IMG/VR virus record: IMGVR_UViG_3300003629_000002
Strand: one strand, 5' to 3'
DNA length: 64,000 nucleotides
Source: an uncultured virus (IMG/VR IMGVR_UViG_3300003629_000002)
Lineage: Duplodnaviria > Heunggongvirae > Uroviricota > Caudoviricetes
Shown: positions 16,711 through 39,235 of the stretch, piece after piece
Position numbering within the stretch: the first letter of the stretch is position 1
Layout: every line of letters begins with the position of its first letter
Position numbers and translations under genes: made by a program
Notes under the pieces: generated by a model
What the model saw: the letters and a program-made list of their open reading frames with translations, nothing else
Database searches by the model: none
Told to the model about the DNA's origin: nothing

Positions 16711-17411
16711 GCAATTATATTTCAGATAAAGAATTAATTGATGATATAAGGTTAGTTTCATCTGAAATGGGAGAAGTTCCTTCAAGACGCCAGTATAATG
16801 AGCGCGGAAATTATTCTTATAACACGCATTGTCGGAGGTTCGGCTCTTGGAATAGTGCGCTTGAAAAGTCCGTTGGCTCCATAAATAAATATCAGAATAT
16901 TTCTGAAGAAGAATTATATAGCGAAATAGATAGATTATACGAAGAATTAGGCCGACCGCCAATGCAAGAAGATATGAAAAGAATTGGCGAATATAGTCCT
17001 GATACATACCACTATAACTTAGATGGGTGGAGTCAAGCAGTTATAGATGCAGGATATGAACCTATTACAAGAGGTTTTAAAAGTGGAAAGGAGCATCCTG
17101 ATTGGAAAGGTGGCTCTATTGACTATTATGGGCCTAATTGGAGTTCGGTTAGAAAAGAGATTCTTGAAAGGGATAGCAATTGTTGCAGGATATGCTCAGA
17201 ATCAGAGGAGCGACTTTGCGTCCATCATATTAATCCGCGCTCAGAATTTGTTAAAGATGGTGAATACAATTACGAAAAAGCAAACAAGAAGGAAAATCTT
17301 ATAACGCTGTGTGATTCTTGCCATATGAAGTTTGAGGGAAAATTCGCTAACAGTAGCCATACGGAGTTCGAGAATGAAGCGAAAGATTTAAGTAGTACCA
17401 AAACGAAATAA
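16707..17411 (+). mobile_element. HNH homing endonuclease with two N-terminal HNH-associated repeats, inserted in the Ro60 gene
   Basis: RRFGSWNSAL repeat, WKGG, LERD..CRIC, VHHI, NLITLCDSCH; AT-rich. Confidence 0.9.
17380..17395 (+). promoter_or_regulatory. Viral promoter embedded in the HNH 3' end, upstream of the Ro60 C-terminal half
   Basis: cgaaagatttaagtag at leaderless spacing from ATG 17417. Confidence 0.7.
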
Positions 17412-17416
17412 GTAAT

Positions 17417-18157
17417 ATGAAAGATAACAATATTTTCGGAGATACGTCCGAACGAGTTGTACGAAATAGTGGCCTATATCCTTTTAGATATTATCAGGCT
17501 TATAAGGCTATTAAAGAATCACCTGATACACCAAATGATAAGAGGGTATTAGAATGGCTCGAAAACGCAATGCGCGTTGCAACAGAGAATCTGCCGGACG
17601 TATTCGAGAATACGTTTACAGCAGTTGACGTGTCTGGTTCGATGCGTCACGCTGTCTCCGGTGATTCGGAACTCACTTGCAAGGAGATTGCCACGCTGTT
17701 CGGTGCGATGATGCTTGAGCGCGACTCGGATGTAGGCGTGTTTGCAAGCAACTTCGCTGAGGTAAACGCTGACCCGCGCAATCCACTTGTCACCAATGCG
17801 GAGAAGTTACAAGGTTCGCGTGTCGGCGGCTCGACGAATGGCTGGAAGGTGCTTCGTGGGCTGAGAAAAGAGAACCGCTCTTACGACAGGGTGGTAGTCT
17901 TCACGGATATGCAACTCTGGAACGACTCTCCGTACCAGAACTCCTCGTTCAAGGACGAGTGGGATGCCTACAAGCAACAGAATCCTGATGCAAGCCTATA
18001 TCTGATTGACCTTCAGCATTATGGCGACCTCGTTACGCCAGAGGGGGCGCAGGATGTATATAATATCTCCGGCTGGTCTGAGAAGGTTCTCGACTTCATC
18101 GAGGCCATTGAGAATGTCGATGGGATGATTCAAGAGATTGAATCGGTAGAGCCGTAA
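17417..18157 (+). CDS. Ro60/TROVE protein C-terminal part with vWA domain
   Basis: SGLYPFRYYQAY, AVDVSGSM (MIDAS), GGSTNG, VVVFTDMQ, ISGWSEKV. Confidence 0.9.
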   Translation: MKDNNIFGDTSERVVRNSGLYPFRYYQAYKAIKESPDTPNDKRVLEWLENAMRVATENLPDVFENTFTAVDVSGSMRHAVSGDSELTCKEIATLFGAMMLERDSDVGVFASNFAEVNADPRNPLVTNAEKLQGSRVGGSTNGWKVLRGLRKENRSYDRVVVFTDMQLWNDSPYQNSSFKDEWDAYKQQNPDASLYLIDLQHYGDLVTPEGAQDVYNISGWSEKVLDFIEAIENVDGMIQEIESVEP

Positions 18158-18477
18158 TGGGTGTTCACTTCAAGACAGTCGGCGGGTATGAAGTGCTGAC
18201 TGATGGAACAGATTCCTTCAAGCATCATAGACTACTGGCTTGTCTTGATGAAGACCCAAGCGATGTATTCAATGGTCGTATTTGGAATGTGCATCATCGG
18301 AACACAATTTCTTGGGATAATCGACCGGCTAATCTGCTCTTGATTCGCTCACGTTATCATCGAAACTTTCATATGAAAAACGATTGGGCGGAAATTTGTG
18401 CATTCTACAATCAGAATGATGTATCAGATGCACAACTTAGTATTGAGAAATACTACAAGACAATTAGCCACAAGTAA
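18157..18477 (+). CDS. Small HNH-motif protein
   Basis: HRLLA, VHHRN...DNRPANL...H..FH. Confidence 0.7.
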   Translation: MGVHFKTVGGYEVLTDGTDSFKHHRLLACLDEDPSDVFNGRIWNVHHRNTISWDNRPANLLLIRSRYHRNFHMKNDWAEICAFYNQNDVSDAQLSIEKYYKTISHK

Positions 18478-19000
18478 TTTTCGGAAGACTTAAGTCCCTG
18501 TAGGCTGTAATATTTCATATGAGTACGTACATTTGCAAAGCCTGTAGCCACGCTGATAAAGGTAACTTTCGATTTACTGTATCGTGGGATGATTCTGTCG
18601 ATAGTGCATTTGCGACTCGTTGCCCGAGGTGCGGTTCGCTTGAGGAAGAACTTGAGTATCTATGAATAATTTCTCTTTATACGAAGCAATTGACGAAAAA
18701 CTCCGTGACGCTATTGCAAACGCGGAGGAATCATACGATAGTCCGTATATTGTTATTGTTGCTAATCCAGAGATAGTCGATGCCCTGAAGACAAATATGG
18801 ACCCGTCTGTTGGGACAAATATGACGAATGTCAAGATTGACGGCTACGAAATATTTGAATCTGAGGATGTTGTTCTCGGCGTATTTGTCTGTGGCGAGAA
18901 TCTTGATAGTGAGAAGAAACGCATCCAGCAACGTCTTAGAAATAAGATGAATATCTAAGTTATCGAAACCCTTATATGGCATCGTTGCATATAGATACAT

Positions 19001-19885
19001 ATGCGAGACAAAATTAGAAATACAATTTACGAGATTGAGACGAGCGAGAATATCCACGCAATCTCTTGTCGCTCGTTTGGGAGTCATATGATGAACCTCG
19101 ACTCGGACGAGTCAGACTACGATGCGTTTCTCGTCTTCGCGCAAAGTGCGCCGGATTATGCAACTATCGGCGGCTACGAGGATACGCTGACCATTAAGCG
19201 AGGCGAGATTGACTTCCAATGCTGGAACGTCAAAAAGTTTGGCGAACTACTGAATGACTCAAATCCCACGACTCTTGAGTTTCTGAACTCGCCAGTTACG
19301 TACTTCGAGAATCCCGAATTTATCAGCACGCTGGATTCGTTGCGGGAAATGGCGAACGAGAACTTCAAGCCGATTGCGCTCTACTACCATTACCGTAGTA
19401 TGGCGGAGTCGAACTATATGAAGTACCTCAAACCGTGCATCTACGATACGGAGGGAGAGCGATACCCTATCGAGAACGAGGATGACCACTACTGGCATAC
19501 CGGCATTGGTGAGATTCCGAAAGACTCGGATGAGTACGAGGCTGGCAACTTGAAGCAGACTGTCAAGCGTAATCTCTACATTATGCGAGCCATCCTTCAC
19601 GCGAAGCACATCCGCAAGACGCACGAGATGCCGACGATGAACTTCCCTGCATTCGTTGATTCACTCGATGAAGGTGACTTGGGGCTTACGCGAGCAGACA
19701 AGGATAGGCTGAAAAAGTGTATCCATCGAAAGCGTAACGCGAATGCGTATGAGGAAATCGGGAATCCGTTCGAGGATTTCATCGAGGCCGAGTTATCGCG
19801 TGAACTTGACCCGGAAAAACATCTCGACGGAGAGATGAATACTGAGCAGATTAACGAGTTCATCAAGAATGGTATTGTTCGCTGA
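19001..19885 (+). CDS. Pol-beta superfamily nucleotidyltransferase (RlaP/YcgL-like)
   Basis: GSHMMNL...SDYD, WNVKKF..LL..SNP..LEFL.SP, YHYRSMA. Confidence 0.85.
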   Translation: MRDKIRNTIYEIETSENIHAISCRSFGSHMMNLDSDESDYDAFLVFAQSAPDYATIGGYEDTLTIKRGEIDFQCWNVKKFGELLNDSNPTTLEFLNSPVTYFENPEFISTLDSLREMANENFKPIALYYHYRSMAESNYMKYLKPCIYDTEGERYPIENEDDHYWHTGIGEIPKDSDEYEAGNLKQTVKRNLYIMRAILHAKHIRKTHEMPTMNFPAFVDSLDEGDLGLTRADKDRLKKCIHRKRNANAYEEIGNPFEDFIEAELSRELDPEKHLDGEMNTEQINEFIKNGIVR

Positions 19886-20326
19886 TAACTTTCGCAAGGT
19901 TGCCGAGAGCGTGCGAGTTTCCCCTGTAGGCGATGCCGAGGTTGAGCGAGGCAGGTACTTGTCTTTCCGAAAGGGAGACATTACAGCGACAGTACGCCCC
20001 TCTGCAATAGATATTGACTACAATCCGAAGTGGCTTGACGAGCCGTATCTTGAACTGAAATCGAAGCAGTATAATAATTTCGGAGATGCGGTTGGCTGGA
20101 TAATTTACTATCTTGATATGTACGGCGACGGTCACGACCTGCCGGGAGAATTTGAAATTATTCAGGAATCACACGAATACTTCATTATCTTCGGACTTGA
20201 GACTTCGTTGCAGACATTTCATATATCTGGCAACGGAACATTTGACGTTTCCCAAATCCCCGACCGCGTTGACTACAAGTACGAGCGAAAGGTTTAAGTG
20301 ACCAGAAGAACAAGTATAAGTCGTAT

Positions 20327-22147
20327 ATGGGATTCAACTTTAGCGATACGGCGGAAGACGAGTCCGATGGCGTACCCGAGGAGGAACTCAACTACGATTA
20401 TGACCTCCACGATAATGTCGCCATCGACTTGGTACGGTATGGGCGCTCTCGGGTTGTCAAAAACGAGGAGCAATTCCTGCTGACAACGCTTGGTTATGTA
20501 AGTGGCTTTATGGAAAGCAGTAGCCACTTTATTTCAGGCGTCTTGATTGGTACAGCAGGTTCCGGTAAGACGCACCTTCAGCATCAGGTCGAGGACCTAT
20601 TCCCTGATAATTATCTTTATCAGGCTACCTCTGGTTCTGATACGTCAATTATCTACGACGATACGTGGGAGGATGCGTGGATTGCCTCGTTGGACGAGTT
20701 GCAAAAGCCGTCTGAGAAGATTATCGAGATTCTGAAAAGTCTTCACGGCGACGACGAGGAGTTCACGTATAAGGTTACTGGTGACGGACGCGGCGCTGAC
20801 CGAAGCGTTGACGAGATTAAGCGTTCTGCGATTCCGTACTGGTTCCTGTACGCGCAATACGAGCCTGACTTCGAGATGTGGGACCGTCTGCTGAAGGTTC
20901 CGGTCCACGAATCAAAGGATAAGAACGAGGGCGTCCTTGCGACCAAATGGGACCACTCGATGATTGCCTTTGGCGACAGCGACCACGAGTATATGTTTGA
21001 CTTCAACGATGGATTTCTTGCACTCAAGGACCACATTCGCGAAATGCCGAAAGAGGCGTGGGTGAAGATTCCGGCAGGCGAGGAACAGTTTGGCGGCAAG
21101 GACTTCGTAAAGTATGCAAAGCCAATGTTCGACACCGACCGCTCTGAGACGAATCGTGTCGGTGCAATGGTTGCGAATCTTGTACGTTCATCGGCTCTGC
21201 TGAATCATCATAATCGTGACAAGAAGCGAATCAAGCAATCGAACGAGGGCGTCAAAGAGGCGTACATCGCGGAGCCGCAGGACCTTGCGAACATTCTGAG
21301 TACGCGGGATATTCTGATGGCGACCACGCATCAACTCGACAGAAAGAAGAAGGCACTCTGTGTCGCAATCGAACAGACTGGTGGGACGCGAAATATGTCG
21401 AGTATTAACGATATTCAGGAGCATCTTCGAAAGACCAATGCCTCCTTCGTGAAGCGCCACCAGATTGAGCAGATGCTCGCTGACCTTATCCAGAACTACT
21501 TGGTTGAGAAGCACGAGCGGGCTGGCGAGAATGGTCAGCATCTCTACGAGTTCAAGGGCTGGCAAGCGTTGGGCAAGTTTGAAATCAACGATGATTTCAA
21601 GGAGTTCTTCGATGGCTGTATCGACCCGATTACGGGAGACGACTTCATCGAGACTGCTCGCCGGATTAACAAGGAACTTGAACCGAAGGCGTCTGACTTT
21701 ATGAGCGATACCGAGGTTGACACCTCGCAGAATGAGGATTCGCAAGTCACGCTCGACGGAAGTAAGGCTGGAGCCTTCGAAGACCTTGACCTTGAGCCAT
21801 ACGAGGAAGCCGTCAGAGCCGCGTTGTACGAGACGTTGGACGGTGAACGTATCGACGGCCTCGATGAACACGAGCCGGGTCTGAAGGAGATGCTCGGCCT
21901 CGTGTCCTTCGGAGAGTCTGCGGAAGGTGCAGACATTTCGGGAACAGTCTTTGACCCCGAGAATGAGGTATGGACATACGGTCCTGACGATTGGGTTGAG
22001 ACGCCGCATCAGGCAGAGCGAGAAATCGAGAAAGCGGTTCGAACGTTGACCGAGGAAGGTGTCTTCCGAACCAATACAATTCGAAAGAAGGGCAACCAGC
22101 CGCTTGCGATGAAGGTTGACGTTGCATCGAAGGAGGACGTGCAATGA
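20327..22147 (+). CDS. P-loop AAA+ ATPase, probable replicative helicase
   Basis: Walker A GTAGSGKT, Walker B ASLDE, Arg finger DR. Confidence 0.7.
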   Translation: MGFNFSDTAEDESDGVPEEELNYDYDLHDNVAIDLVRYGRSRVVKNEEQFLLTTLGYVSGFMESSSHFISGVLIGTAGSGKTHLQHQVEDLFPDNYLYQATSGSDTSIIYDDTWEDAWIASLDELQKPSEKIIEILKSLHGDDEEFTYKVTGDGRGADRSVDEIKRSAIPYWFLYAQYEPDFEMWDRLLKVPVHESKDKNEGVLATKWDHSMIAFGDSDHEYMFDFNDGFLALKDHIREMPKEAWVKIPAGEEQFGGKDFVKYAKPMFDTDRSETNRVGAMVANLVRSSALLNHHNRDKKRIKQSNEGVKEAYIAEPQDLANILSTRDILMATTHQLDRKKKALCVAIEQTGGTRNMSSINDIQEHLRKTNASFVKRHQIEQMLADLIQNYLVEKHERAGENGQHLYEFKGWQALGKFEINDDFKEFFDGCIDPITGDDFIETARRINKELEPKASDFMSDTEVDTSQNEDSQVTLDGSKAGAFEDLDLEPYEEAVRAALYETLDGERIDGLDEHEPGLKEMLGLVSFGESAEGADISGTVFDPENEVWTYGPDDWVETPHQAEREIEKAVRTLTEEGVFRTNTIRKKGNQPLAMKVDVASKEDVQ

Positions 22148-23163
22148 ATTGCCCTGATTGCAACGCTGACTTGCGGCAGGTCGGCCTTGAGTATACAGAG
22201 GCAACGGTCCCAATGAACGGAAAGCAGTTCGAGGTTTCGGGATGGGAGTGCGCCGAGTGCGGGTCACTTGTGCATCTACTAACATGAAATCATTTATTTC
22301 AGGAATTGCCGATGTGATGCAAGGGATGATTGATGCATTTCAGTCACTTGCTAATAGAATTGTTGAAATAATTACGGCAATTGGTGATTTCAGGAATCAC
22401 GCCGAGTGTGAAAGAGATGTATGTCACGGCGGAGAATGCATCCATTGCCGAACCCGCAACGCCCACCGTGATGAAATTGTCGGTGACACGATGGCTGGAT
22501 TCTGGCATAAGAACTGCGGCTCGCTGACTACAAGAAGCCGTGGATTTATCTGTCAGGAATGCGGGCGTTCGTTCACAGCACGAAAGACTTAAGTATCTGC
22601 GTATCCTCTTTTACGCTATGAATACAATGGAAGATTTGCGTGAGGAGGTCGCGGTACGGATGCGTCGAGCGATGCACGGTCAGGAAATTGATACGTTTGA
22701 ATCTGATGTTCAAATTCCGCATATGCTTGGCATTACGGAACTTGGCGAAACTCACTCGACCAGCGATGAGGAGCATACAATTCTCGATGAAGAACACGAA
22801 TTTTGGCAGGATTGGCACGACGATGTAGTCACCGGCTATGTCGTTACTGAGAAAATTGAGACTGCTATTCGGTCACTTCGAGAGGACAACGTTCTTCGGA
22901 TTACGTACCCGTATGGCAAAGAGGCAGAGATTGCGTATGTCGAGGTTGACGAAATTGGACGGAATGCAAATATGGATAATACAACTGAATGTACGTCTTG
23001 CGGCGAACGAGTAACGGGCGATGTAAGCATCGAGCCATCGGGTTCGCACTACTCGATTGATATGAAACTCGAATGCGAGAACTGCGGATTCTCCGGTGTC
23101 TTCTCTAAAATTCTGACGAGGAAGTAACGTAAGACTTATATGGAACCGTGTCGTAAGTAGCAT

Positions 23164-23511
23164 ATGGCAATCGTATCATACCGAATCTACTGCGACGACT
23201 GCACAAGAGACGAAGTAATCAGGAAGGATTTCGTTGACGAGTCTCCGTGGAAAGTCAATAGTTTCCATCAGCACTCCGGCGTCTGTCCTGACTGTAATCC
23301 AAAAATTGACGCAAGTAGTGCAGAGTTTGACGATAACAAACTTGAAGTTCCGTTTACCGAACTAAAGGGAATCGGGAGTGGAACTGCGTCAAATCTGCAC
23401 GACGCGGGTATCGAGACTCGTGGCGACGTGCGAGAGGCATCGGACGAGGAACTACGTAACATCTCTGGAGTCGGAGCGACGAGCCTTGAATCTATTAGAG
23501 CGGCAGTATAG
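23164..23511 (+). CDS. Zn-ribbon plus helix-hairpin-helix protein
   Basis: CDDC..CPDC; LKGIGSG and ISGVGA. Confidence 0.8.
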   Translation: MAIVSYRIYCDDCTRDEVIRKDFVDESPWKVNSFHQHSGVCPDCNPKIDASSAEFDDNKLEVPFTELKGIGSGTASNLHDAGIETRGDVREASDEELRNISGVGATSLESIRAAV

Positions 23512-24643
23512 AGACGAGTGGAGCGACGGCTGGACTTGGACGAGACACGGACAGCGTGATGATTCCCGGTTCGACTTCCATCACGACACCATCCAAGATT
23601 TGCACGTTGGTTTCTCCGCAGAGAAGCGTATCATCTACGTGAAGACAGAGGAACCATTTCCAAAGCGTGTGACATTTACAAATGTTACATATCCGTGGCT
23701 TCTTTTATTTGCAATTCTGTGGAGCATTAAGACGATTGTGCCTATCGTGCGAGGGCTTGAGTCTAATCTGTCTTACGATTTATCGGAGCAGTATGACTGA
23801 CCCATTTGCAGAAGCCCTTCCGGTGATTCCATTCACGGATTGGGAGATGACGAAGACGGGATACTACGACGATGGTGCAGTTTATTATTTCGAAAATGAG
23901 TTTTGGCAACTCCGAGCCAATTCAGTAAACGAGCGGATAGTATTCAAACGAAAGACGCACGCCAATGCGGTACAGGTTGACGCAAGTGAACCGATTGTCA
24001 CGAGGGCATACGGAATTATGCTCTACATAGATTCGTGTTACAACAACGGCATTAACCAAACTACTTAAGTGGTTCTGGCTCGTCTGTCTAAGTGTGATGA
24101 ACAAGAGAACTACTGGACAAAATGCAGATTTCCTTAGTATCGCGCTTGAAGAATGTGAGTCGGATAACTACGAAATGGCTCGTGAGTTTATTGATGATGT
24201 TCGTGTGAATCTACTCAATGCGAATAGAGAGACGCAGAGCCAGAAGTTACAGCACGCGCTTAATTGTCTCGATGATGGCGAATATGATGATGCACAGGAA
24301 CTTGTCGGAGGTGTATACGACTCTCTCCTCGAAGAACTCTAATCGAAACGCTTATATGCCTGTATGCCGTATATGCAGGTATGGATAAAAGTAGCGTAAC
24401 GCTTGGACACGGAGAACTGACTGTTGATGCATCGCTGGATGAAATCTCGGATGCACTTGGAAATGATTACATTCTATCTGATACAGCCGAAGGTCGTGAG
24501 TTTGCGTATCTCGCGGCACTTGCGCTTGAGACACAGGACAACGACTCGTATGATATTGAGCGCACGCTGATGGAATTTATTCGGAATGAGGATACACTCA
24601 ATATTGACGCGAGCGACTGCAACGAAATCGAGGCGATTCTTCG

Positions 24644-25447
24644 ATGAATGTTGACGTTCTCGATAGAAGTGATTCTGCTGAGAGGCTTATCTGTCGCGCT
24701 GGACGCGGAGATATGTTCTCTGGCTATGTTGCCGATACAGAGTACGCGGAATTGATGGAGCCTGTCGAGTATGGCACAGACGACATTGCTGGCGCAATTC
24801 GTGAGAATCCAAAGATTGATACCGCATTTCTCGATGAGGATATTGACTCGCTTCCGCAATATATCTACGACGAGGCGGCTACGAGGTCCTTTATTAGAAA
24901 GCAGGCGTCTCGCGGGCATTGGGGAATTTGGGAGCATCCGCAGATTACCTTCGCAGTTGAAGGAATGAGTCGTGTCACGATGGCGCAGATTACGCGGCAT
25001 CGACATCTCTCGTTCGACGTGCAGTCGATGCGGTACGTCGATTTCGATGACCCTGATTACGCAATGCCTGAAAGTCTTACAAACCCTGACCACGCAACTC
25101 GAAGCGAGGGACTCGTATGGGAAGACGTGTCCGACGAACAGCGAGAGGATGCAAAGCACGTCTACGAAAAGGCGCTGAAGAACTGCACGCTTGCATATGA
25201 AAACCTGCTCGAAATGGGTGTTCCTGCCGAGGATGCTCGATATGCATTGCCGCTTGCGACACAGGTGAATGTTACCTTCTCCGGCAATGCTCGAACGATG
25301 CTTCACGTTCTTAACTTGCGTCAACGCGGCAACGCACAATGGGAGATTCGGAATATGAGCGAGGATGTCGTCGCAGAATTGCGAGAGTGGATTCCGTATA
25401 CTGCCGCGTACTGGGACGAGAAGGGTCCGGTTCAGATTAGCCCATAA
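24644..25447 (+). CDS. thyX: Flavin-dependent thymidylate synthase
   Basis: GHWGIWEH, QITRHRHLSFDVQSMRY, EDARYALP, AQWEIR. Confidence 0.97.
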   Translation: MNVDVLDRSDSAERLICRAGRGDMFSGYVADTEYAELMEPVEYGTDDIAGAIRENPKIDTAFLDEDIDSLPQYIYDEAATRSFIRKQASRGHWGIWEHPQITFAVEGMSRVTMAQITRHRHLSFDVQSMRYVDFDDPDYAMPESLTNPDHATRSEGLVWEDVSDEQREDAKHVYEKALKNCTLAYENLLEMGVPAEDARYALPLATQVNVTFSGNARTMLHVLNLRQRGNAQWEIRNMSEDVVAELREWIPYTAAYWDEKGPVQISP

Positions 25448-26109
25448 TGCCTTTCGAATGGGAAGAATCGGACGAGAAATATACCGACTACGAGTCTGCC
25501 AATGAGCAGTCTGCGTCGGATATTGGAAGCGTCAATTGTCCAGAGTGCGGCGACAAGGCATACTGCATCGAGTTTTACCCTGACGCCGACGACCCGGCGT
25601 GGGCATATGAGTGCCACGATTGCGAGATTCATATCACGGCTCGTCCGTCGAAGGTCGTGGCTCACGCAAGCAACATATGAATACTGAAATGCGTGCGCTT
25701 GCCGTGCTGACTCCGGTAATGAATGAGATAATCACAACGGAGACTGACCCGAATAAGAACCACGGCCTCGTTCTGCCTGTCAGACGCGCCTCACGGGATT
25801 TAGTTCGTGACGTGGATAAGATGACGTACTTCGCTGACGAACGCTGTGAGGAGCCGGAGAACGCGCTCTCGAAGGAGTACGCTGTTAACTACCCCAACTT
25901 CGAGGCAATTCGAATGGACGCTGAAGATAATATTGAGACGATTCGGACACATCGTGTCGTTTCTGCAACTGGAAGCCAACTCGCTGTCTACGCGAAGTGG
26001 TTCCATAAGGATGCATCAGATGAACCGCTCGATGCGAGATACGCAGATATGATGCACGAATACGCTAATTTTCGAAAGTTTTAAATAGTTGCGGCTCGTA
26101 ACATATGCT

Positions 26110-26598
26110 ATGTCGGGTCGTATCAAAGAAGCCTGCGTATATTCGCTGAGTGACGACTACGACCCAAATCAAGCGACGTTGGATTCGTGGGGCGACCTAA
26201 TGGAGACAAAGATTGCTGTTGTGTCTCGCCCAAGCGATAAGATGCTTGAAGTAACTGATGAATGCTTCTCGGAACTTGGAATGCCAGAGAAGTATCTCAG
26301 CAGATTTTGGAAACGGCGCTCAGACTATCAACTAAATAGTGCAATTGATAATCCGCACAATCGCGCCTACGAGGATTTGTCGCTCGATACGAAATACATC
26401 GAGCATATTCGAAACTCCGCCGAGGCACAGCGTGCGCTCACGGAACTTGTTTCTCGGATTGAAAACGGGGAATGCATCACGCTCGTCTGTTTCGAAGAAG
26501 GGCACGAGCATTGCCATCGGCACGTTTTACTCGATATAATTGAAAAGAGAATCGAGAATAATTTTATTGCAACCGAGAGAGCCACCCCCGTTGAGTAA
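26110..26598 (+). CDS. DUF488-like protein
   Basis: ITLVCFE....CHRHVL motif. Confidence 0.65.
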   Translation: MSGRIKEACVYSLSDDYDPNQATLDSWGDLMETKIAVVSRPSDKMLEVTDECFSELGMPEKYLSRFWKRRSDYQLNSAIDNPHNRAYEDLSLDTKYIEHIRNSAEAQRALTELVSRIENGECITLVCFEEGHEHCHRHVLLDIIEKRIENNFIATERATPVE

Positions 26599-26604
26599 GC
26601 CGCT

Positions 26605-26742
26605 TCAGACAATAAATTCTTCTCTATCAGGAACGAGTTGGAACGATTCACTACAATCGGGGCAGAACCAATCTCCATTCTGCATCGCAAGTTCCGAATT
26701 GCAATCATCGCAACGATGGGACGAGTATTCGTCACCGGGCAT
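26605..26742 (-). CDS. 45-aa zinc-ribbon microprotein
   Basis: MPGDEYSSHRCDDC...WFCPDC; SD GGAGGTGA. Confidence 0.65.
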   Translation of the reverse strand: MPGDEYSSHRCDDCNSELAMQNGDWFCPDCSESFQLVPDREEFIV

Positions 26743-26861
26743 ATAATCACCTCCGTATATTTTCTATGTCAATATGTACCTTAGTTCTACAAGTATATAA
26801 ACCTTTCGATTTGCGTAGGCTTACCGCTGTTCAGTATTGAGTAAAGAGAGAAGAAGACTGC

Positions 26862-26975
26862 TTAGTTACTGCACGGCGAGAAGAAGCAATTGTTGCACAC
26901 TCCACACGAGGAGTGGCTGGACTTTTCAATTACTCCTTCACCGCAGGACGGGCAAAGTTCTTGCATTGCGCTCAT
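26862..26975 (-). CDS. 37-aa Cys-rich peptide resembling the class II RNR C-terminal Zn-ribbon/redox tail
   Basis: MSAMQELCPSCGEG...CGVCNNCFFSPCSN; SD GGAGGTGA; directly downstream of nrdJ. Confidence 0.65.
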   Translation of the reverse strand: MSAMQELCPSCGEGVIEKSSHSSCGVCNNCFFSPCSN

Positions 26976-27051
26976 TCGTCGTCACCTCCTTTCTTGATGA
27001 TGTATTCTCGTTCGTGCGATACCTGACTGCCTAATTTTAGAATTTCATCCA

Positions 27052-30000
27052 TCATAGTTCAGACTCCACGTAGTTCTCAGCGTCTTCGAGGAACTGCTCG
27101 ATGTCTTCCTCGGTCCATTCCGCATCGTCGTCCATCTCGATAAGAATCTCACGAGCCGCCTCCTGCTTCTTATCAAGATTATTGTCAACACGAGTCGTCA
27201 GCACTTGCTCATCACGAGAGCCGTCGCGGTAGAACGTCAGACCCTTAATCGTTTGGCCGAGTTCGTCTTCGTCAAGCGCGAGCATAAAGGCTTCGTGAAC
27301 GTCGTTCCGGGTTGCGTCATTCGGCGCATTGATTGTCTTACTGATACCGGAATCAACGAACTCCTGAAACGCTCTTTGCATCATCCCGTGTTCGCGTGAC
27401 GAGAGGTCGTTCGTTGTTACGAAGACCTTTGCAATATTTTCGGGAATATCGAGGTCGTCAACTCCGTCGAACTCGTTGTTTCGCATCTTTGTTTCAGCAT
27501 CTTCCTTGATGCTCTCCACATCGAGTCCGTTCGCCTCAAGCGTCTTGAGGAAGTAGTCGTCAAATTCGACGAGCATATCGCTTCCCTGAATGTCGTCTCC
27601 GACGTTCTTGAAGTTTGCGACGTTGTACGCAGGTTCACAACCGCCGGTCGTGTTACCAATCATTGAAGTTGTCCCGGTCGGAGCGATTGTCGTCGTATTG
27701 TGATTGCGAATCGGGAAGCCATCTTCCCAATCGTCAGCACTTTCGTAAGTATGCCCCTCGAACCACTCACGGTACTTCTGCGGGTCGGCGTACTTCGACT
27801 CGTCCCAGTAGTCGAACGAGCCGCGCTCTTGAGCGAGTTCGTGACTCATCTGGACAGACTCCTTATCAATGAAGCCCATCACGACACGGGCCGCCTGATA
27901 CGAGTTATCGCTTCCATACGGGATTCCCATCTGGTAGAGCATCTGCGCCCATCCCATAATCCCGAGGCCAATCTTTCGCTGACCCTTCACGCGCTCTGAG
28001 ATTTGTTCAAGCGGGAACTCGCTTTGGGTTACAACGTTATCGAGGAACCGAGTGCCGTGTCGGGTAATCATCTGCAACTGCTCCCAATCAACGTTCTCCT
28101 CGCAGTAGTCCGTTACTGCGTTCTTCTCGAACTGATAATCGTAATCGACAGTTTTCTTCCATTCCTCGAACGGAATAGAATCCGACTTCATCATCAGGCT
28201 CAGATTAACGTGCCCGAGGTTGCACGCCTCGAACGCGGAGAGCGGCTGTTCGGCGCATCCACGATTGACATAGCCTTCAGTAACCCACGTATCTGAACCA
28301 GAACAGTAGAGGTCAAAGACAGTTTCTTTTTCCTCAAGAACCTCAATAGATTCGACAGTTGCTTTCCACAGACCGCCGGTTAGCATAAAGTCAGTTCGTA
28401 GCGTTTCAAGACGTTCGCCTTTACTTGTGTGGTAATTTGACAGTCGAGTGTTTCGAACAAATGTGTCAGCAGACTCGCCAGCGATGTGAATATTGTAGAG
28501 AGTGTACGTCTCATCATTACCAATTTCACTTCCATCACCCCGAGTTCCGCCACGATTCTTTCTCTTGTCTTCGTAAATCCGAGCGTGCATACCCACATTG
28601 AGGGCAAGATTTCGGATGTTGTTAGCCAACTTTTCCGAAGACGTAGACCAGCGAATCTGAGGCCGGTTAGAAGACATACTAACACTACCATCAGTAGCCA
28701 ACATACCGTCAAGGAACCCTTGGACTCCCGCCCGAGTCTTAAATTCAGTCACATCCACACTTTTTTCGTAACTGTATTCGGGGTTGAGATTGTGGTCTTC
28801 AATGACTTTCTCTGCGTCTGCAATCCAAAGCTTGACCGACTTGTTTCGACCGCTGGTATCAAGCTCTCCGACATTGTAACCAGCATCCTCAAACAGTTCT
28901 CGGACGTTCTGATTGAATGTGGTATCATCTTCACTCGAACTAATTGAAAGTCGATTGTTCACATCAATTGTCTTCTGTGTGTATCCCCCATCTCCGGTGA
29001 GGATACCACGTCGGAGTTGATACTTGTAATCTTCTTCAGTCCCTTTACTCTCAAGCGTTGATGGTTCAAGTCGAATCTTATCACCCTCAGAAATATCTCG
29101 GAGAGGAGTGTTTTTATCCACACTCTTTTTCCCGTCAAGAACGTGGAAGCGATGGTCTTCTGTCGCCTTAACACTACCACCATCACTTAGATTGACTTGA
29201 TAGACCTCTTTATCCTCAAAGGTTAGAATCTCATCAACAGATTCGGTTCCATAAACAGTTGAAATTTTATTTCCTTCGCTAACGTTTTCGGCACGAATTA
29301 GTCCGTTAGGAGTGTTAACGAGCGTGTCGCCCGTGACGCACGGATTGGTCGCATTGATTGCATGTTGCGGGTACTCGTCTGCGTCGAAGGAATGCTTGCG
29401 GTTCGTCTCGTCGTAGTGGAACAGACCCGGCTCACCATTGCGCCACGCTCCGTCGATAATGAGGTCCCAAATGAAGCGAGCGGGAAGCGTCATTTCTTCG
29501 CCAACCTCAAGACTGAAGCGAGACTGGTCCCACTTTTCTGCGAGCGGAATCTTCTCGTCGGTGTCGTAATCAGGGTGTGCGACGATGGTATCAGCGTAGT
29601 CTCGCCACAGGTTCTCGTCTACAAGTTCCATCCCAACCTTATCCTCAGCATTCGCCTGCTGGAAGTCTTTCGGGTTGTCAGCGTACTCGGGAGAGTAGAA
29701 CTTCTTCGTTTCTTCGAGAACTGCCTGCGGCTCCGAGAAGTCGGACTGCGGGTCGTAGATTGCGTAGTCTTCGTCGTTGCGAACAGCCTCGATAAATTCA
29801 TCCGTGAGAGCGACAGAGATATTGAAGTTATCGAGGACACCCTCGACACGTTTTGCTGTAATGAATCGACCAATGTCGGCGTGGTCAATTCGCATAATAC
29901 CCATCTGTGCCCCTCGTCGCTTTCCTCCCTGCTTCACCGTTTCGCACGTCTCGTCGTAGAGACGCATAAACTGCATTGGACCGCTGGTTTCAGATTCGGT

Positions 30001-30483
30001 TGACCGAATGTACGCTCCCTTTGGCCGAAGATGACTGAAACTGTAGCCAACTCCGCCGCCACTCTTGAAAATCTGACCAGCGTGCTTCACCGTATCGAGA
30101 ATGGACTCTCGACCAAACTCGTCTTCCTCTGCCATCGAATCGCCCGGCTCAAGGACGAAGCAGGCCGAGAGTTGCTGAAGGCTCGCTCCTGCGTTCATTA
30201 GAGTCGGGCTGTTCGGCATAAACTGAAGCGTACTCATCATATGCTCGAACTCGTCGGCCCACATCTCCTGAGCCACTTCATCGCTTTCCGCACCAGCGAC
30301 GTTCTCTGCGACTCGATTGAATAGGTCTTCCGGGTCCTCACCTTCGAGGAGATACCGTGCTGGAAGAATATTGTGATATGCGTTTCCAGTCATTCGTTCC
30401 TTGACCGATTCAGTCTCGTCTACCGAGAGAATCGGCATCTCTACTTCTACTTCTTTCTCTGATGCTTGTGTTTGTTGAGTCAT
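27052..30483 (-). CDS. nrdJ: Adenosylcobalamin-dependent (class II) ribonucleotide reductase with intein
   Basis: PNSPTLMNAG, LSACFV, GGGVG, QGGKRRGA, NP/CAEQ, CNLG, TIAPTGT, ISKTIN, KGLTFYRDGSR. Confidence 0.95.
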   Translation of the reverse strand: MTQQTQASEKEVEVEMPILSVDETESVKERMTGNAYHNILPARYLLEGEDPEDLFNRVAENVAGAESDEVAQEMWADEFEHMMSTLQFMPNSPTLMNAGASLQQLSACFVLEPGDSMAEEDEFGRESILDTVKHAGQIFKSGGGVGYSFSHLRPKGAYIRSTESETSGPMQFMRLYDETCETVKQGGKRRGAQMGIMRIDHADIGRFITAKRVEGVLDNFNISVALTDEFIEAVRNDEDYAIYDPQSDFSEPQAVLEETKKFYSPEYADNPKDFQQANAEDKVGMELVDENLWRDYADTIVAHPDYDTDEKIPLAEKWDQSRFSLEVGEEMTLPARFIWDLIIDGAWRNGEPGLFHYDETNRKHSFDADEYPQHAINATNPCVTGDTLVNTPNGLIRAENVSEGNKISTVYGTESVDEILTFEDKEVYQVNLSDGGSVKATEDHRFHVLDGKKSVDKNTPLRDISEGDKIRLEPSTLESKGTEEDYKYQLRRGILTGDGGYTQKTIDVNNRLSISSSEDDTTFNQNVRELFEDAGYNVGELDTSGRNKSVKLWIADAEKVIEDHNLNPEYSYEKSVDVTEFKTRAGVQGFLDGMLATDGSVSMSSNRPQIRWSTSSEKLANNIRNLALNVGMHARIYEDKRKNRGGTRGDGSEIGNDETYTLYNIHIAGESADTFVRNTRLSNYHTSKGERLETLRTDFMLTGGLWKATVESIEVLEEKETVFDLYCSGSDTWVTEGYVNRGCAEQPLSAFEACNLGHVNLSLMMKSDSIPFEEWKKTVDYDYQFEKNAVTDYCEENVDWEQLQMITRHGTRFLDNVVTQSEFPLEQISERVKGQRKIGLGIMGWAQMLYQMGIPYGSDNSYQAARVVMGFIDKESVQMSHELAQERGSFDYWDESKYADPQKYREWFEGHTYESADDWEDGFPIRNHNTTTIAPTGTTSMIGNTTGGCEPAYNVANFKNVGDDIQGSDMLVEFDDYFLKTLEANGLDVESIKEDAETKMRNNEFDGVDDLDIPENIAKVFVTTNDLSSREHGMMQRAFQEFVDSGISKTINAPNDATRNDVHEAFMLALDEDELGQTIKGLTFYRDGSRDEQVLTTRVDNNLDKKQEAAREILIEMDDDAEWTEEDIEQFLEDAENYVESEL
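28258..29340 (-). mobile_element. 361-aa intein with LAGLIDADG endonuclease and atypical C-terminus (…YVNRG/C)
   Basis: Starts CVTGDT after ATNP; block B ATEDHRF; GILTGDG and FLDGMLATDG; VFDL; extein resumes CAEQPL. Confidence 0.9.
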
Positions 30484-30587
30484 TGTTATGTCACCGTCAA
30501 ATGCGAGAGCCATCCCTATGTGAATTACGATTCTCGCATCCAACTTCGGGATATTAGTGTATGCGTTCCGGGTACTTAAGCCTTTCG

Positions 30588-31136
30588 TTATTCCCGAGAG
30601 TTGAATTGCATTCCAGAAGGAGTGGCTCCCGACTGTCCCTGATACTGCGAACCGCGTTCCTCGCCATACGGCGTTTCAACGCCGCTGACTGGAGTAAACC
30701 AGATTTGGCATACTCTGTCGCCTGCATATAATTTCACCGGATGCTGTCCCTCGTTTTCAATCTCTAACGTGATTTCTCCACGAAATCCGGGGTCGATGAA
30801 GCCAGCCGTCTTGTGAATTACAACATCCAAGCGACCAAGGCTCGACCGACCGATTACATTTGCCGCGAGGTCGTCAGGCATTCCGATAGTTTCCATCGTC
30901 GTTCCGAGTATCGTTTCACCCGGATATAGTTCGAGTTCGTCTACCTCAAAGTTTCGCGTCTCGAACGAGTCATCATCGTGTGTATCAATCGTTCGACCTG
31001 TGGGTTCAATCGTTGTAAAATTTCGTCCAAGGCGTAAGTCAACCGATGCCGGTTCGACGTGTTCAGGAACAAAGGGATTAATATACAAATCCCCCGATTC
31101 AACCCTCTCAATAATTTCCATCTCTCCAAGAATCAT
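30588..31136 (-). CDS. dcd: dCTP deaminase
   Basis: PASVDLRLG, GRSSLGRL, AGFIDPGFRGEITLE, YQGQ. Confidence 0.95.
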   Translation of the reverse strand: MILGEMEIIERVESGDLYINPFVPEHVEPASVDLRLGRNFTTIEPTGRTIDTHDDDSFETRNFEVDELELYPGETILGTTMETIGMPDDLAANVIGRSSLGRLDVVIHKTAGFIDPGFRGEITLEIENEGQHPVKLYAGDRVCQIWFTPVSGVETPYGEERGSQYQGQSGATPSGMQFNSRE

Positions 31137-31282
31137 TATATGATAATGGCTCTCGGAGAACTTAAATATTTCGGTTTGAGTCGAATCGGGGGCTACGTCT
31201 GCATTCTATCTAATGTGCGTCGGCACGCTTAATGCAAATTTCAACCGCAAGACTTATAAGTAATTAGGTTGTATACATAGAT

Positions 31283-31885
31283 ATGAGAAATGGATTTTTT
31301 GTTACTCTTGAAGGTGTTGACGGAGCAGGGACAACGACGGTTGCGGAGTCTCTCAAAGAAGAATATCCGAACGCTCAGATGACCAGCGAGCCATCTGATT
31401 TATGGACTGGCAAGCAGGTTCGGAAATGTCTTGCCGAAGACTCAGACACGCATCCGCTGACGGATTTCTACTTCTTTATGGGCGACCGTGTGCATCATAT
31501 CGAGAGTCGTGTCCGGCCTGCCGTGAAGAACGGCGATATGGTCATTAGTGACAGATACGCTGACTCAACTCGCGCATATCAGTCAATTGCACTACGCGCC
31601 GCCGGAATCCCGAAACCGCAGATTATGTCCTATATTGAAAATGTGATGGGTCCATTCGACTATGAGCCTGACCTGACGCTCTGGCTTGACGTTGATGTTG
31701 ACACCTCATTTAAGCGCGTGGACGGAGACGAGAAGTACGAGCAGGCGTCTGACTTCCAGAAGCGCGTACACGAGAATTATCAGGGTTTGTACGATGCTTA
31801 CGACCGTATTGTTCGAATCGACGCGAATCAGGGGAAGGAAGACGTAATCGCTGACTGTATCGAGGAAATCGAAACCTTTAAGTAG
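31283..31885 (+). CDS. tmk: Thymidylate kinase
   Basis: FVTLEGVDGAGTTT, EP, DR, ISDRYADSTRAYQ, PDL. Confidence 0.95.
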   Translation: MRNGFFVTLEGVDGAGTTTVAESLKEEYPNAQMTSEPSDLWTGKQVRKCLAEDSDTHPLTDFYFFMGDRVHHIESRVRPAVKNGDMVISDRYADSTRAYQSIALRAAGIPKPQIMSYIENVMGPFDYEPDLTLWLDVDVDTSFKRVDGDEKYEQASDFQKRVHENYQGLYDAYDRIVRIDANQGKEDVIADCIEEIETFK

Positions 31886-31943
31886 TAGTAGGTCTTACGT
31901 ATTGTTACGCGGTTGTGGTAAGCCCACGATGGCGTTTGAATCA

Positions 31944-32016
31944 GGGCGATTGGCCGAATGGATAAGGCGCTGGTTTGCGGAACCAGAGATTGCGGGTTCG
32001 ATTCCTGCATTGCCCA
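31944..32016 (+). tRNA. tRNA-Arg(GCG)
   Basis: Cloverleaf, anticodon arm CTGGT-TTGCGGA-ACCAG. Confidence 0.9.
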
Positions 32017-32722
32017 CTCCTCCTCTCTTTGGTTGAGGGGATAACGCCGCCGAGTGGCGTGAATGCAAGTTCTCGGTAAATTGCGCGTCCATTTGCAAGA
32101 ATGGGCGGAAAGTAAGTTAAGGCTCGGTTTACATCGAGAGATGGTGTAGTCTTCGCTAACCACGAGGGCGGTATTAGCCAAGTACCGTATCGCAGACGGC
32201 TGGTGTCTGGCACAAAGACTTGGGACCTACAATGATACAGAAGGGAGATAAATCAGAAATGGCTGTCGCAAATGCGTTTACCCAATTTGGGACCGCAGTT
32301 TCGAAGCCGCTATCTGACAACCTCCCGTATGACTTCATTGTAGATTATAATGGCCTTCACAGAGTTCAGGTCAAAACTGCGCGGGAGCGTAGTGATAATA
32401 AGAACTCTATTATCGCAGACCTCACACGAAGCAGGCATAACTACTCTACTGGTCACAGTAAAGAGTATTATAGTGATGATGAGATTGACTTCTTCGCTAT
32501 TTATTGGCCGAAACGTGGGGAGGTATACTTGTTCGACTTTGACGAAGTTGGCAAGAACGCTGTAACTATTTGCGTAGGCGATGTTTATAACCCCAACCAG
32601 CAACGTGTTGGCGAGGATTATCTCCTTGAAGTACGGTTGGATTCATTAACACAGTCGTAAAAGGTCCGTCCCAACACTACGGGCGTAGTTTGACAGACTA
32701 CTGGTGGGCTGGTCTTCCACAC
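32017..32722 (+). ncRNA. Unknown multi-hairpin RNA (about 250 nt without insert) interrupted by an endonuclease-bearing putative intron
   Basis: Consecutive hairpins flank the ORF; pairing across it (GGACCT/AGGTCC, TGGTG/CACTA). Confidence 0.55.
32232..32660 (+). mobile_element. PD-(D/E)XK endonuclease (I-Ssp6803I / PDDEXK_5-like)
   Basis: KGDKSE, P....PYDFIVD, RVQVKT, Y...EIDFFAIY. Confidence 0.9.
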
Positions 32723-32781
32723 ATTCGTTTTCTAAATCGAAAGGTTTAAATAGTAGGGGCGCATTAGTAAGAGTACGAAGT

Positions 32782-32852
32782 GCCGAAGTGGTCTAAAAGT
32801 AAGATGCGTGCCTGTCACGCACGAGACTCGGGAGCATTACCCGGCTTCGGCG
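32782..32852 (+). tRNA. tRNA-Asp(GTC), atypical T loop
   Basis: CGTGC-CTGTCAC-GCACG; T loop AGCATTA. Confidence 0.8.
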
Positions 32853-32991
32853 TGGGCAATCTGACTTGCCCTTGACTGACGTGAGCCACACGGCAGGATT
32901 GACCAACCCTCGTTATAGGGAATCGTGGTGCATCGTCAGCGTACTGTGACGCCTCACGGTACGGGGGAGTATTCCCCTTTAATGACAGCGT

Positions 32992-33069: not shown

Positions 33070-33468
33070 ATGACGACAGAAACTAATAGAAAGGGTGACG
33101 TAGGAGAACTTCAAGTCGCTTCTACATTACTTGAGTTAGGTTACGTCGCATCCCGTCCAATGACGGAAACTGACTATGACCTAATTGTGGACCTCGGTGA
33201 TGACGGCATCAAACGGGTTCAAGTAAAAGTCTGTCGTTGGTCAGAAGATGACAACACGTATCGTGTAGGATTTGAGAAAACACACTACACATCAGACGGA
33301 GCCAACCGAAAACTATATCAAGATACAGATATAGACGCATACGCGGTATACAACCCTGATAGAAGTGAGGTATACTGGCTATGGTTTGGCGAAGCACCTA
33401 AATGGGGTGCTTCAAGAAGTGCTGATACGTGGCAAAAGGACTTGATTACAGAGAAGTTGGGTCGATAG
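33070..33468 (+). mobile_element. Free-standing PD-(D/E)XK endonuclease between tRNA genes
   Basis: KGDVGE, YDLIVD, RVQVK, Y...DIDAYAVY; stop codon lies inside tRNA-Phe. Confidence 0.9.
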
Positions 33469-35253: not shown

Positions 35254-35737
35254 GTCGTGGTAGTTCAATTAGTAGAACGCCGTGCTGTTAAGGACATATG
35301 AACACAAAAGACAAAGGTGATTTGGCTGAAGTATCCGTTGTAAAACGGGTAAAGGAGTTAGGTTATACGGTATCAATTCCATTCGGTGATAATGCACCAT
35401 ATGACCTGATATACGATGATGGCCAATTACACAAAGTCCAAGTGAAATATGGTAGACTATCTGAAGGAAAAGTTAAAGCAAAACTTGAGCGGACACAAAG
35501 AAATCAAGGAAGACACGCTCATAAACCGTATGATTCGTCTGAAGTTGACGAATTTGCAATTTATTGTCCGGGGACAGATGAAGTTTACCGTATATCAGTA
35601 ACAGATGGCCAAAGACGGAAGTCTATCTTCGTGTTGAGGAAGCGAAGAAGGCTGATTCAAGTATACGTTGGGCATCTGAATATCGTTTATAGTCCGCAGA
35701 TACACGGAGGTTGGAGGTGCAAGTCCTTCCCGCGACG
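35254..35737 (+). tRNA. tRNA-Asn(GTT) with a 411-nt BHB intron (35291-35701) at position 37/38
   Basis: Exons 35254-35290 and 35702-35737 join into a cloverleaf; strict BHB motif. Confidence 0.92.
35298..35692 (+). pseudogene. Intron-encoded PD-(D/E)XK endonuclease with an apparent -1 frameshift near 35608
   Basis: KGDLAE, PFGDNAPYDLI, KVQVK, VDEFAIYCP; the -1 frame continues PKTEVYLRVEEAKKADSSIRWASEYRL* and stops at the intron stem. Confidence 0.85.
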
Positions 35738-35800
35738 TTCTTTTGCACAATTTTCTTTATCGAAAGATTTATATAGTATAAACACATACACTAATATACG

Positions 35801-35875
35801 CTCAGGATAGCGCAATTTGGTTGACGCACTCGCCTGTAGAGCGAGGCTATGCAAGTTCAAATCTTGCTCCTGAGA
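35801..35875 (+). tRNA. tRNA-Tyr(GTA)
   Basis: CTCGC-CTGTAGA-GCGAG; archaeal C1:G72. Confidence 0.9.
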
Positions 35876-39101: not shown

Positions 39102-39235
39102 GCGTCCGTGGCCCAATCAGGTACGGCACTCCGCTGATAAAAGAGATAATCAGATGAATATCCCAATATTAATTCGGCATCTGAGTATCACTTGCAGTAA
39201 CGGAGCGATTGTTGGTTCAAATCCAACCGGGCGCA
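39102..39235 (+). tRNA. tRNA-Ile(GAT) with a 60-nt intron (39140-39199) at position 37/38
   Basis: CTCCG-CTGATA|...|A-CGGAG; BHB with one A.G mismatch. Confidence 0.88.

Follow-up and report, generated by a model that had tools for sequence, protein, structure and literature searches.

A probable structured non-coding RNA gene conserved beside tRNA-Arg in HGTV-1-like haloarchaeal tailed viruses, with homing-endonuclease reading frames in its hairpin loops

Large RNAs rich in conserved helices are rare, and those that are understood have mostly proved to be ribozymes or the cores of ribonucleoprotein (RNP) machines. ROOL and GOLLD are large structured non-coding RNAs found in the tRNA neighbourhoods of phages and prophages, and the tRNA cluster of T4 contains the stable species 1 and 2 RNAs, which are cut from tRNA precursor transcripts in a region that also carries the homing endonuclease SegB. 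Release by tRNA enzymes is likewise known for mascRNA, which is freed by RNase P and RNase Z. Homing endonucleases of the I-Ssp6803I and LAGLIDADG types are classic passengers of introns, I-Ssp6803I itself being encoded by a group I intron of tRNA-fMet. Here we analyze a 64,000-nt stretch of DNA from an uncultured virus (IMG/VR record IMGVR_UViG_3300003629_000002), referred to as a whole as the window, in which a structured RNA lies directly behind a tRNA-Arg gene and is split by an endonuclease open reading frame (ORF); coordinates of the RNA are window positions on the + strand. In our view this is probably a previously undescribed gene for a structured non-coding RNA, conserved among haloarchaeal tailed viruses of the HGTV-1 type.

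The window shares its local gene order with Halogranum tailed virus 1 (HGTV-1, NC_021328), namely ribonucleotide reductase, dCTP deaminase, thymidylate kinase, tRNA-Arg(GCG), a gap, tRNA-Asp and a tRNA array, and the two viruses are related but distinct (thymidylate kinase 81% and dCTP deaminase 87% identical). A synteny search with the kinase returned four loci, three of which carry the RNA after tRNA-Arg(GCG); the fourth, L079, lacks both the tRNA and the RNA. The HGTV-1 copy is contiguous (L001:3078 to about 3375), and the flanks of the window ORF adjoin there. In the viral contig L081 no ORF interrupts the RNA (4158-4409), which takes up precisely the interval between tRNA-Arg(GCG) and tRNA-Asp. 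A further lineage is represented by L080 and by the metagenome locus L096, which completes L080 at its 3' end and in which the RNA (955-1595) fills the space from tRNA-Arg to tRNA-Glu. In all four versions tRNA-Arg(GCG) stands immediately 5' of the RNA on the same strand. The RNA starts at 32018, one or two bases past the tRNA-Arg discriminator, and ends at the T-run 32728-32731, in agreement with the coordinates (32017-32722) that an earlier note, made from the letters of the window, had given for it. The shortest form measures about 250 nt, and those of the window and HGTV-1 about 285-295 nt with the ORF excluded.

The RNA is built of 5' hairpins (H1, H2 and H4), a near-invariant four-way-junction core (PL, H5, H6 and H7) and a 3' domain that varies by lineage, with GNRA tetraloops on H4 and H5 in most versions. 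Its parts in the window are:

32018-32731, + strand: structured RNA gene, directly 3' of tRNA-Arg(GCG), split by the endonuclease ORF
32018-32121, + strand: 5' domain, comprising H1, H2 and H4 plus joiners
32021-27/32035-41, + strand: H1, with compensatory changes
32037-46, + strand: conserved joiner GGGGATAACG
32044-50/32054-60, + strand: H2, ACGCCGC/GTGGCGT, three of five pairs changed on both sides
32061-69, + strand: purine-rich joiner GAATGCAAG
32086-94/32099-107, + strand: H4, CGTCCATTT-GCAA-GAATGGGCG, with a GCAA tetraloop and compensatory changes
32122-32211, + strand: core four-way junction of PL, H5, H6 and H7
32122-29 with 32205-11, + strand: closing helix PL, GC-N-CGGAY with GUCUGGC, nearly invariant
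32132-35/32140-43, + strand: H5, CATC-GAGA-GATG, GAGA loop, five pairs changed on both sides
32149-55/32163-69, + strand: H6, GTCTTCG/CGAGGGC, invariant loop CTAACCA, all five inner columns compensatory
32170-83, + strand: joiner between H6 and H7
32185-88/32196-99, + strand: H7, five pairs changed on both sides
32201-04, + strand: TGGT, possible partner of the H6-loop ACCA (32159-62)
32223-32227, + strand: GGACC, 5' arm of the ORF-bearing hairpin, pairing with GGTCC at 32663-32667
32232-32660, + strand: homing-endonuclease ORF of 142 aa with an ATG start, in a hairpin loop of the RNA
32657-32727, + strand: 3' domain, aligned with HGTV-1 L001:3290-3340, one compensatory pair
Within the 3' domain, + strand: GTAAAAGGTCC element, which holds the 3' arm 32663-67
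32685-89/32697-701, + strand: 3' hairpin
32701-12, + strand: CTGGTGGGCTGG, which with the preceding hairpin duplicates the H7-plus-CTGGTGTCTGGC module of the core

Covariation between the four versions carries the case for a selected fold. We counted pairs by program in a MAFFT alignment (A4, four sequences) over helices H2, PL, H5, H7 and ACCA/UGGU, which gives 27 pairs and 108 cells. Changes on both sides were present in 13 of the 27 pairs, against 5.2±1.6 in shuffled alignments (none of 500 reached the observed count) and 0-3 when the partners were slid; 91.7% of the 108 cells were paired, compared with 77.5±2.6 after shuffling and 35-43% after sliding. In a table of all helices registered by hand, pairing holds in 206 of 211 cells, and 28 of 72 columns are compensatory, versus 3-5 when slid. 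The firmest helices are H2, H5 and H7, which lie in ungapped alignment, and RNAalifold recovers H2 and H5 unaided. H6 shows matching changes on both arms in one metagenome contig (32152/32166 and 32153/32165). Folding z-scores relative to shuffled sequences were -1.9 for the 5' part in the window, -2.2 for HGTV-1 and -1.9 for L081. G·U pairs are frequent, with invariant ones in PL and H6; their number, together with the sense z-score of -1.9 versus -0.96 for the antisense, shows that the + strand RNA is the selected form.

Most of the hairpins listed in the earlier note are recognizable in this fold. Those it gave as ACGCCGC/GTGGCGT, CGTCCATTT-GCAA-GAATGGGCG, CATC-GAGA-GATG and GTCTTCG/CGAGGGC are H2, H4, H5 and H6, and each is kept in the relatives with compensatory changes; the further hairpins past the nuclease and the terminal T-run that it described are also present. 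Two of its pairings have to be given up. GGTATT/AGTACC is not conserved and conflicts with H7, the covarying hairpin to which its 3' arm belongs. The possible long-range pair GTAGTCT/AGACTAC gives way to two local helices: AGACTAC is the 3' arm of the hairpin 32685-89/32697-701, and GTC belongs to H6. In two relatives, moreover, the 3' partner is missing altogether.

Within the core, RNAalifold suggests a pairing of two invariant elements, the ACCA in the loop of H6 and the UGGU that separates H7 from PL. Such a pairing would leave the 16-nt strand CCUAC-UGGU-GUCUGGC paired throughout, which would explain its invariance. Other candidates were rejected. Long-range pairing of the H4 exit with the stretch that follows PL gives a 4-bp match in each sequence but out of register, and we judge it to be chance. 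A GAAUG/CAUUC pairing that involves the 3' tail would, in HGTV-1, fall past the T-run, and the H7 loop as a codon or anticodon mimic has no consistent triplet. Comparison of the conserved joiners, by eye, with the consensus sequences of RNase P P4-like, K-turn, T-loop, cobalamin-box and Shine-Dalgarno-like motifs found none that fits all four sequences.

No described family accounts for the RNA. A cmscan search against all 4227 Rfam families, with gathering scores for the whole window and E up to 10 locally, gave 29 hits at gathering score in the whole window, all of them tRNA; up to E 10 nothing credible was found in the RNA region or on the uninterrupted HGTV-1 copy. Rfam includes families for RNase P, the signal recognition particle (SRP), ROOL and GOLLD, and neither these nor other curated large RNAs gave a covariance-model match in the window or locally. 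The earlier note had been unable to assign its large structured RNA to RNase P, SRP or group I/II introns, and indeed no such match appears at E up to 10. Its description of the RNA as unclassified stands, with covarying helices in all four known versions and no matching family. The checks it had proposed, an Rfam search with the ORF removed and a covariation analysis across halovirus homologues, have in effect been made.

Further copies appear to be few. The core profile used with nhmmer matches only the four versions (E 1e-21 to 1e-24). Exact-word scans returned 7 loci for a 17-mer and 69 for a 15-mer, HGTV-1 being the only real one in both. Gapped core patterns gave 3 of 3 and 3 of 14 real loci in viral contigs; in metagenome contigs they gave 33 loci, of which two were real, both of the L080 type, and two weak ones (E 0.014) were read as unrelated; in genome contigs they gave 32 loci with bacterial titles throughout, none matched by the core profile. 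A blastn search of 50,697 phage records with the HGTV-1 and L081 copies found HGTV-1 alone, as did a synteny search with the dCTP deaminase. No paralogue of the RNA was found in the window or HGTV-1, although the BLAST part of this search was weak, as it also missed the known L080 copy. In three public DNA runs we observed variant contigs, one with 502 other letters in place of 32020-32131 and some with the RNA core in different flanks. The HGTV-1 record has no annotated feature in the RNA region, and we found no description of the RNA in the literature on HGTV-1 tRNAs, homing endonucleases, TROVE or non-coding RNA, or on archaeal-virus Y RNA and Ro60. Passage searches of a 2026 paper on the HGTV-1 host (PMC13532342) likewise found no mention of it, and no match to transcriptome or RNA sequencing (RNA-seq).

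The ORF that splits the RNA in the window matches Pfam PDDEXK_5 (PF11645; E 6.1e-22, 78.6 bits against a cut-off of 26.1) and, over residues 4-104, PDB 2OST chain A (E 4.4e-7), an entry that names its molecule 'Putative endonuclease' and which we take to be I-Ssp6803I. By these matches it is a PD-(D/E)XK homing endonuclease of the I-Ssp6803I family. The segment TTGGGAC...[ORF]...GTAAAAGGTCC of the window corresponds to an AGGAC-18 nt-GTCCT hairpin of HGTV-1, where the ORF is absent; since HGTV-1 has the same hairpin with an 18-nt loop, the window ORF sits in a hairpin loop. Its start AUGA pairs with its end UCGU atop the GGACCU/AGGUCC stem. A related ORF of 141 aa in the L080/L096 lineage belongs to the same family and replaces a different hairpin, H4, while L081 has none. 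The window ORF is 34% identical to the L096 ORF and 36% to a free-standing ORF at 33070-33468, and in a metagenome contig a version of it that has diverged by about 10% occupies the site found in the window. Both stop codons are supplied by conserved RNA sequence: in the window the TAA at 32658-60 lies within the conserved GTAAAAGGTCC element and belongs to the conserved GTAAAAGG element, and in L096 the stop is the TAA of a conserved TAAGGC. The ORFs occupy hairpin loops only, at two sites in two lineages, and are absent from two other lineages, which is the pattern expected if only loop insertions were tolerated. The earlier note had argued that invasion by a nuclease implies a conserved functional RNA, and this distribution agrees with it. 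Canonical bulge-helix-bulge motifs, in which a 4-bp helix between two 3-nt bulges is bordered by further helices, number zero around the window ORF and zero around the L096 ORF, when 175 of 500 random placements give at least one, and as neither ORF is flanked by such a motif nothing suggests that it is spliced out. Further PDDEXK_5 ORFs, free-standing paralogues, lie on the + strand at 33070-33468 and 35298-35810, LAGLIDADG_2 ORFs lie at 3722-4456 and 11028-11735 (+), and colonization of the genome by homing endonucleases is heavy and densest in the tRNA array. In HGTV-1 the RNA is instead followed downstream by a LAGLIDADG gene that has a promoter-like motif of its own.

The 3' domain is the variable part. 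The 3' extension common to the window and HGTV-1 is a duplicated H7-plus-CUGGUG module, on which the core profile gives a weak second match in HGTV-1 (E 2.1). In L081 and L096 the 3' hairpin covaries, and its loop forms a pseudoknot with an AAAA(G)CUCC element further downstream, three of the six pairs being compensatory. In HGTV-1 a AAAACUCCGCC element in the hairpin loop can pair with the loop of the second hairpin; in the window the ORF has taken the place of this AAAACUCCGCC element.

The surrounding signals outline a short transcription unit:

31870-31884, + strand: promoter-like motif CGAAACCTTTAAGTA, 5' of tRNA-Arg, predicted start of the transcription unit
31944-32017 (ARAGORN) or 31944-32016 (Rfam), + strand: complete tRNA-Arg, anticodon GCG, Rfam tRNA 65.5 bits
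32728-32731, + strand: T-run, likely archaeal terminator of the tRNA-Arg/RNA unit as read from sequence
32738-32752, + strand: next promoter-like motif, serving tRNA-Asp at 32781-32853

A 15-nt pattern, CGAAANNTTTAARTA, has 20 matches in the window against 0.01 expected and precedes genes and tRNA groups (examples are at 2027, 3664, 10407, 15746, 31870, 32738 and 52749, and one on the - strand at 61157-61171); it is probably the BRE/TATA promoter consensus of the virus. No match to it occurs between 31885 and 32737. In the gap from tRNA-Arg to tRNA-Asp, about 210 nt without a credible ORF are followed by the endonuclease ORF and then by about 70 nt to TTTT, and HGTV-1 has a hairpin plus TTTT at the place equivalent to the T-run of the window. 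With motifs at 31870 and 32738, none between them and the T-run at 32728-32731, tRNA-Arg, the RNA and the endonuclease ORF would form one transcription unit. All 32 tRNA genes that ARAGORN calls in the window are on the + strand.

From this arrangement we can propose how the RNA would be made. Transcription would start from the motif at 31870 and run through tRNA-Arg into the RNA, whose 5' end would be left by a tRNase Z cut behind the tRNA. The 3' end would be given by the T-run terminator in the window and HGTV-1, and by an RNase P cut before the next tRNA in L081 and L096; because the flanking tRNAs adjoin without a spacer in these two, tRNase Z and RNase P would set both ends there. The endonuclease would be translated from the same transcript, the ORF staying in place as an oversized loop, and the released RNA would act in trans as a compactly folded RNA or RNP. 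The product is most likely a stable non-coding RNA, co-transcribed with tRNA-Arg and excised by tRNA-processing enzymes. As to its role, we can only speculate, and with doubt, about a viral function in tRNA biology or RNA repair, the genome also encoding Ro60, RtcB, RlaP and more than 30 tRNA genes. A broader and equally tentative picture is that of a new class of large, compactly folded archaeal-virus RNA with a four-way junction, a pseudoknot and GNRA loops, derived from a tRNA precursor via tRNase Z and RNase P. Such an RNA would be a ribozyme or the RNA component of an RNP specific to the virus, with tRNAs or damaged RNA as its target and possibly with the Ro60/RtcB/RlaP module as its partner.

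Several points weigh against reading the element as a conserved functional RNA. It is known from sequence only, its transcript and ends being predicted. Only four distinct sequences from one narrow virus clade are available, with changes that are few and phylogenetically dependent, and the thermodynamic z-scores are modest. In the table with 206 of 211 paired cells the helix registers were chosen by hand, so its paired fraction is inflated; PL and ACCA/UGGU never vary and so draw no support from covariation; and a helix H3 is weak and out of register between sequences. The 3' domain differs by lineage, and the window ORF replaces a AAAACUCC element that is paired in the other three versions, so the copy in the window may be partly impaired. 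Finally, the RNA is tied to Ro60 and RtcB solely by co-occurrence in two genomes.

This co-occurrence raises the possibility that the RNA is a Y-RNA-like partner of the viral Ro60 (TROVE) protein, or a second one, with its cloverleaf-shaped core as the tRNA-like domain of YrlA. A Pfam run on 43 window ORFs reveals an RNA-repair island of an HD protein, RtcB, a split Ro60/TROVE and an RlaP-type enzyme; with two further genes of this RNA-repair-type set, the window has:

7194-7841, + strand: HD-domain protein (Pfam)
8389-9774, + strand: RtcB ligase (Pfam)
14937-15611, + strand: PspA/IM30 protein
15889-16707, 16707-17408 and 17417-18154, + strand: Ro60/TROVE split by an HNH endonuclease, in the order TROVE part, HNH ORF, Ro60 vWA part
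19001-19882, + strand: RlaP-type nucleotidyltransferase (Pfam)
26089-26595, + strand: DUF488 protein

The genes of the island also occur in HGTV-1, so that Ro60, RtcB and an RlaP-type nucleotidyltransferase are encoded in both near-complete genomes that have the RNA; its TROVE gene, gp239, is unsplit (one 509-aa ORF), with an HNH gene just downstream. The core four-way junction adds to the resemblance, having a closing helix of 7 bp, a connector of 2 nt, and stems of 4 bp and 5 bp, the latter with a loop of 7 nt. Ro60 is partnered by Y RNAs in bacteria and phages, and phage Ro60 proteins bind phage-encoded Y-like RNAs (PMC4201824, PMC12135203). As described in PMC4201824, however, YrlA-type RNAs are 80-130 nt long, are encoded no more than about 4 kb from Ro60 and on its strand, and have near-invariant T and D arms and, close to the 5' end in a terminal 5'-3' stem, the Ro60-binding motif GNCGAAN0-1G, whereas the RNA studied here has 250-290 nt and starts, on the same strand, 13.9 kb from the end of the Ro60 vWA ORF (18154 to 32018). 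CGAA was seen by eye only in HGTV-1, at the H4 exit; a terminal 5'-3' stem was not found, nor were T-loop or D-loop sequences, and neither a tRNA nor any other Rfam hit covers the RNA. A better candidate is the conserved leader directly upstream of Ro60. For these reasons we regard a Y RNA as improbable.

That leader (15775-15888, +) follows the promoter motif at 15746-60 and is highly conserved in HGTV-1 (L167:7600-7715, -). A long 5'-3' stem buries GGUGAU before the ATG, and an inner hairpin has four compensatory pairs between the two viruses, so that the leader may be either a Y-RNA-like partner of the viral Ro60 or a site of its autoregulation. The HNH ORF that splits Ro60 carries homing-endonuclease-associated repeats.

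Alternatively, the RNA could be a strongly diverged tRNA-derived element, acting as a decoy or processing substrate for tRNA enzymes or for host nucleases that target tRNAs. Its location inside a tRNA array would fit, as would the cloverleaf topology, with stems of 7, 4 and 5 bp, 7-nt loops that have U as their second nucleotide, and an invariant A behind the closing helix. We nevertheless find this quite unlikely: neither ARAGORN nor Rfam at E up to 10 calls a tRNA in 32018-32780 or in the HGTV-1 copy, G18G19 and a T-loop consensus are missing, H6 is 7-8 bp long where 5 would be expected, a joiner of 14 nt and a spacer of 4 nt stand where a tRNA has none, and a further 100 nt of conserved 5' hairpins would be left unexplained.

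The region might also have no function of its own, being a tRNA trailer or endonuclease untranslated region with chance hairpins and a sequence kept similar through gene conversion driven by the endonucleases, or hiding an antisense protein gene. The modest z-scores are compatible with this, the homing endonucleases that are dense in the array can homogenize their flanks, and antisense frames are open in the window and L081. Gene conversion, however, preserves sequence and yields no compensatory double changes; the RNA is present without an internal ORF in L081 and HGTV-1; gaps between versions, as in the alignment of the window with HGTV-1, have lengths not divisible by three; all six frames of L096 contain stops; and the open antisense frames of the window run through the tRNA-Arg gene. 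On these sequence criteria the region is non-coding, and we consider an absence of function very unlikely.

A group I intron or its remnant, or an archaeal bulge-helix-bulge intron, spliced out with an ORF in a peripheral loop, would account for ORFs in terminal loops at differing places and for the GNRA tetraloops, pseudoknot and size typical of group I introns, but it is largely refuted and highly improbable, since a complete tRNA-Arg lies 5' in four of four versions and a complete tRNA directly 3' in two (L081 and L096), which leaves no room for exons, at E up to 10 neither the P3-P9 catalytic core of group I introns nor any other Rfam intron model is recognized, the uninterrupted copy included, and no canonical bulge-helix-bulge lies by either ORF, the random placements mentioned above showing how readily one arises.

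Other features of these genomes were noted in passing. The spacer between tRNA-Asp and the next tRNA (32854-32990, +) is also conserved in HGTV-1 (L001:4122-4256) and in part in L079 (3300-3360); by eye it contains inverted repeats, for example a 9-bp GTACTGTGA/TCACGGTAC hairpin that is also found in L079, followed by a hairpin and a T-run, and it may encode another small RNA or act as a terminator. At 10448-10579 and 39102-39235 (+) Rfam places tRNAs, 132-134 nt long, that ARAGORN does not call; they presumably contain introns, and the HGTV-1 annotation has an intron-bearing tRNA-Asp near its RtcB gene. The ribonucleotide reductase ORF (27052-30543, -; 1163 aa) shows by eye an intein-like insert, a block that starts CVTGDTLV and has LAGLIDADG-like sequence inside.

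On the tentative picture of a new class of archaeal-virus RNA, it would also be the first non-intron, non-ribosomal RNA gene known to us that hosts homing-endonuclease genes in its own terminal loops. As this case shows, a structured RNA gene can be colonized by homing endonucleases without an intron. We found no large multi-helix conserved RNA described for archaeal viruses in the literature on HGTV-1 and on archaeal-virus Y RNA and Ro60. The RNA is small enough for probing and crystallization, the pair HGTV-1/Halogranum sp. SS5-1 is isolated and culturable, and the ORFs in two loops are natural insertion mutants that mark dispensable parts. It offers a direct route to the role of non-tRNA passengers in viral tRNA arrays, as for the T4 stable RNAs, ROOL and GOLLD.

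Among described systems, those of YrlA, Yrl1 and Yrl2 resemble ours in a genome that encodes Ro60, RtcB and an RlaP-type enzyme and in an RNA with a cloverleaf-shaped domain; judged by PMC4201824, the RNA differs from Y RNAs in its size, its distance from Ro60, and the lack of a GNCGAAN0-1G motif and of T and D arms. With endonuclease-bearing group I introns it shares the endonuclease family (PF11645, PDB 2OST), ORFs confined to terminal loops at lineage-dependent positions, GNRA tetraloops, a pseudoknotted fold and a length of a few hundred nucleotides, but unlike them it interrupts no gene, has complete tRNAs as flanks, matches no intron model and gives no sign of splicing. Like mascRNA-type processed non-coding RNAs, it abuts tRNAs without a spacer, so that its ends are predicted from tRNA-processing enzymes; unlike mascRNA, it is far larger, and its processing would be directed by neighbouring real tRNAs. 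ROOL, GOLLD and the T4 stable RNAs are similar in being virus-borne, conserved, multi-helix RNAs in or beside tRNA genes. The window RNA is much smaller than GOLLD and ROOL, and it stands apart from all of these by its archaeal virus host, by matching no Rfam family and by the endonuclease ORFs within its own hairpin loops.

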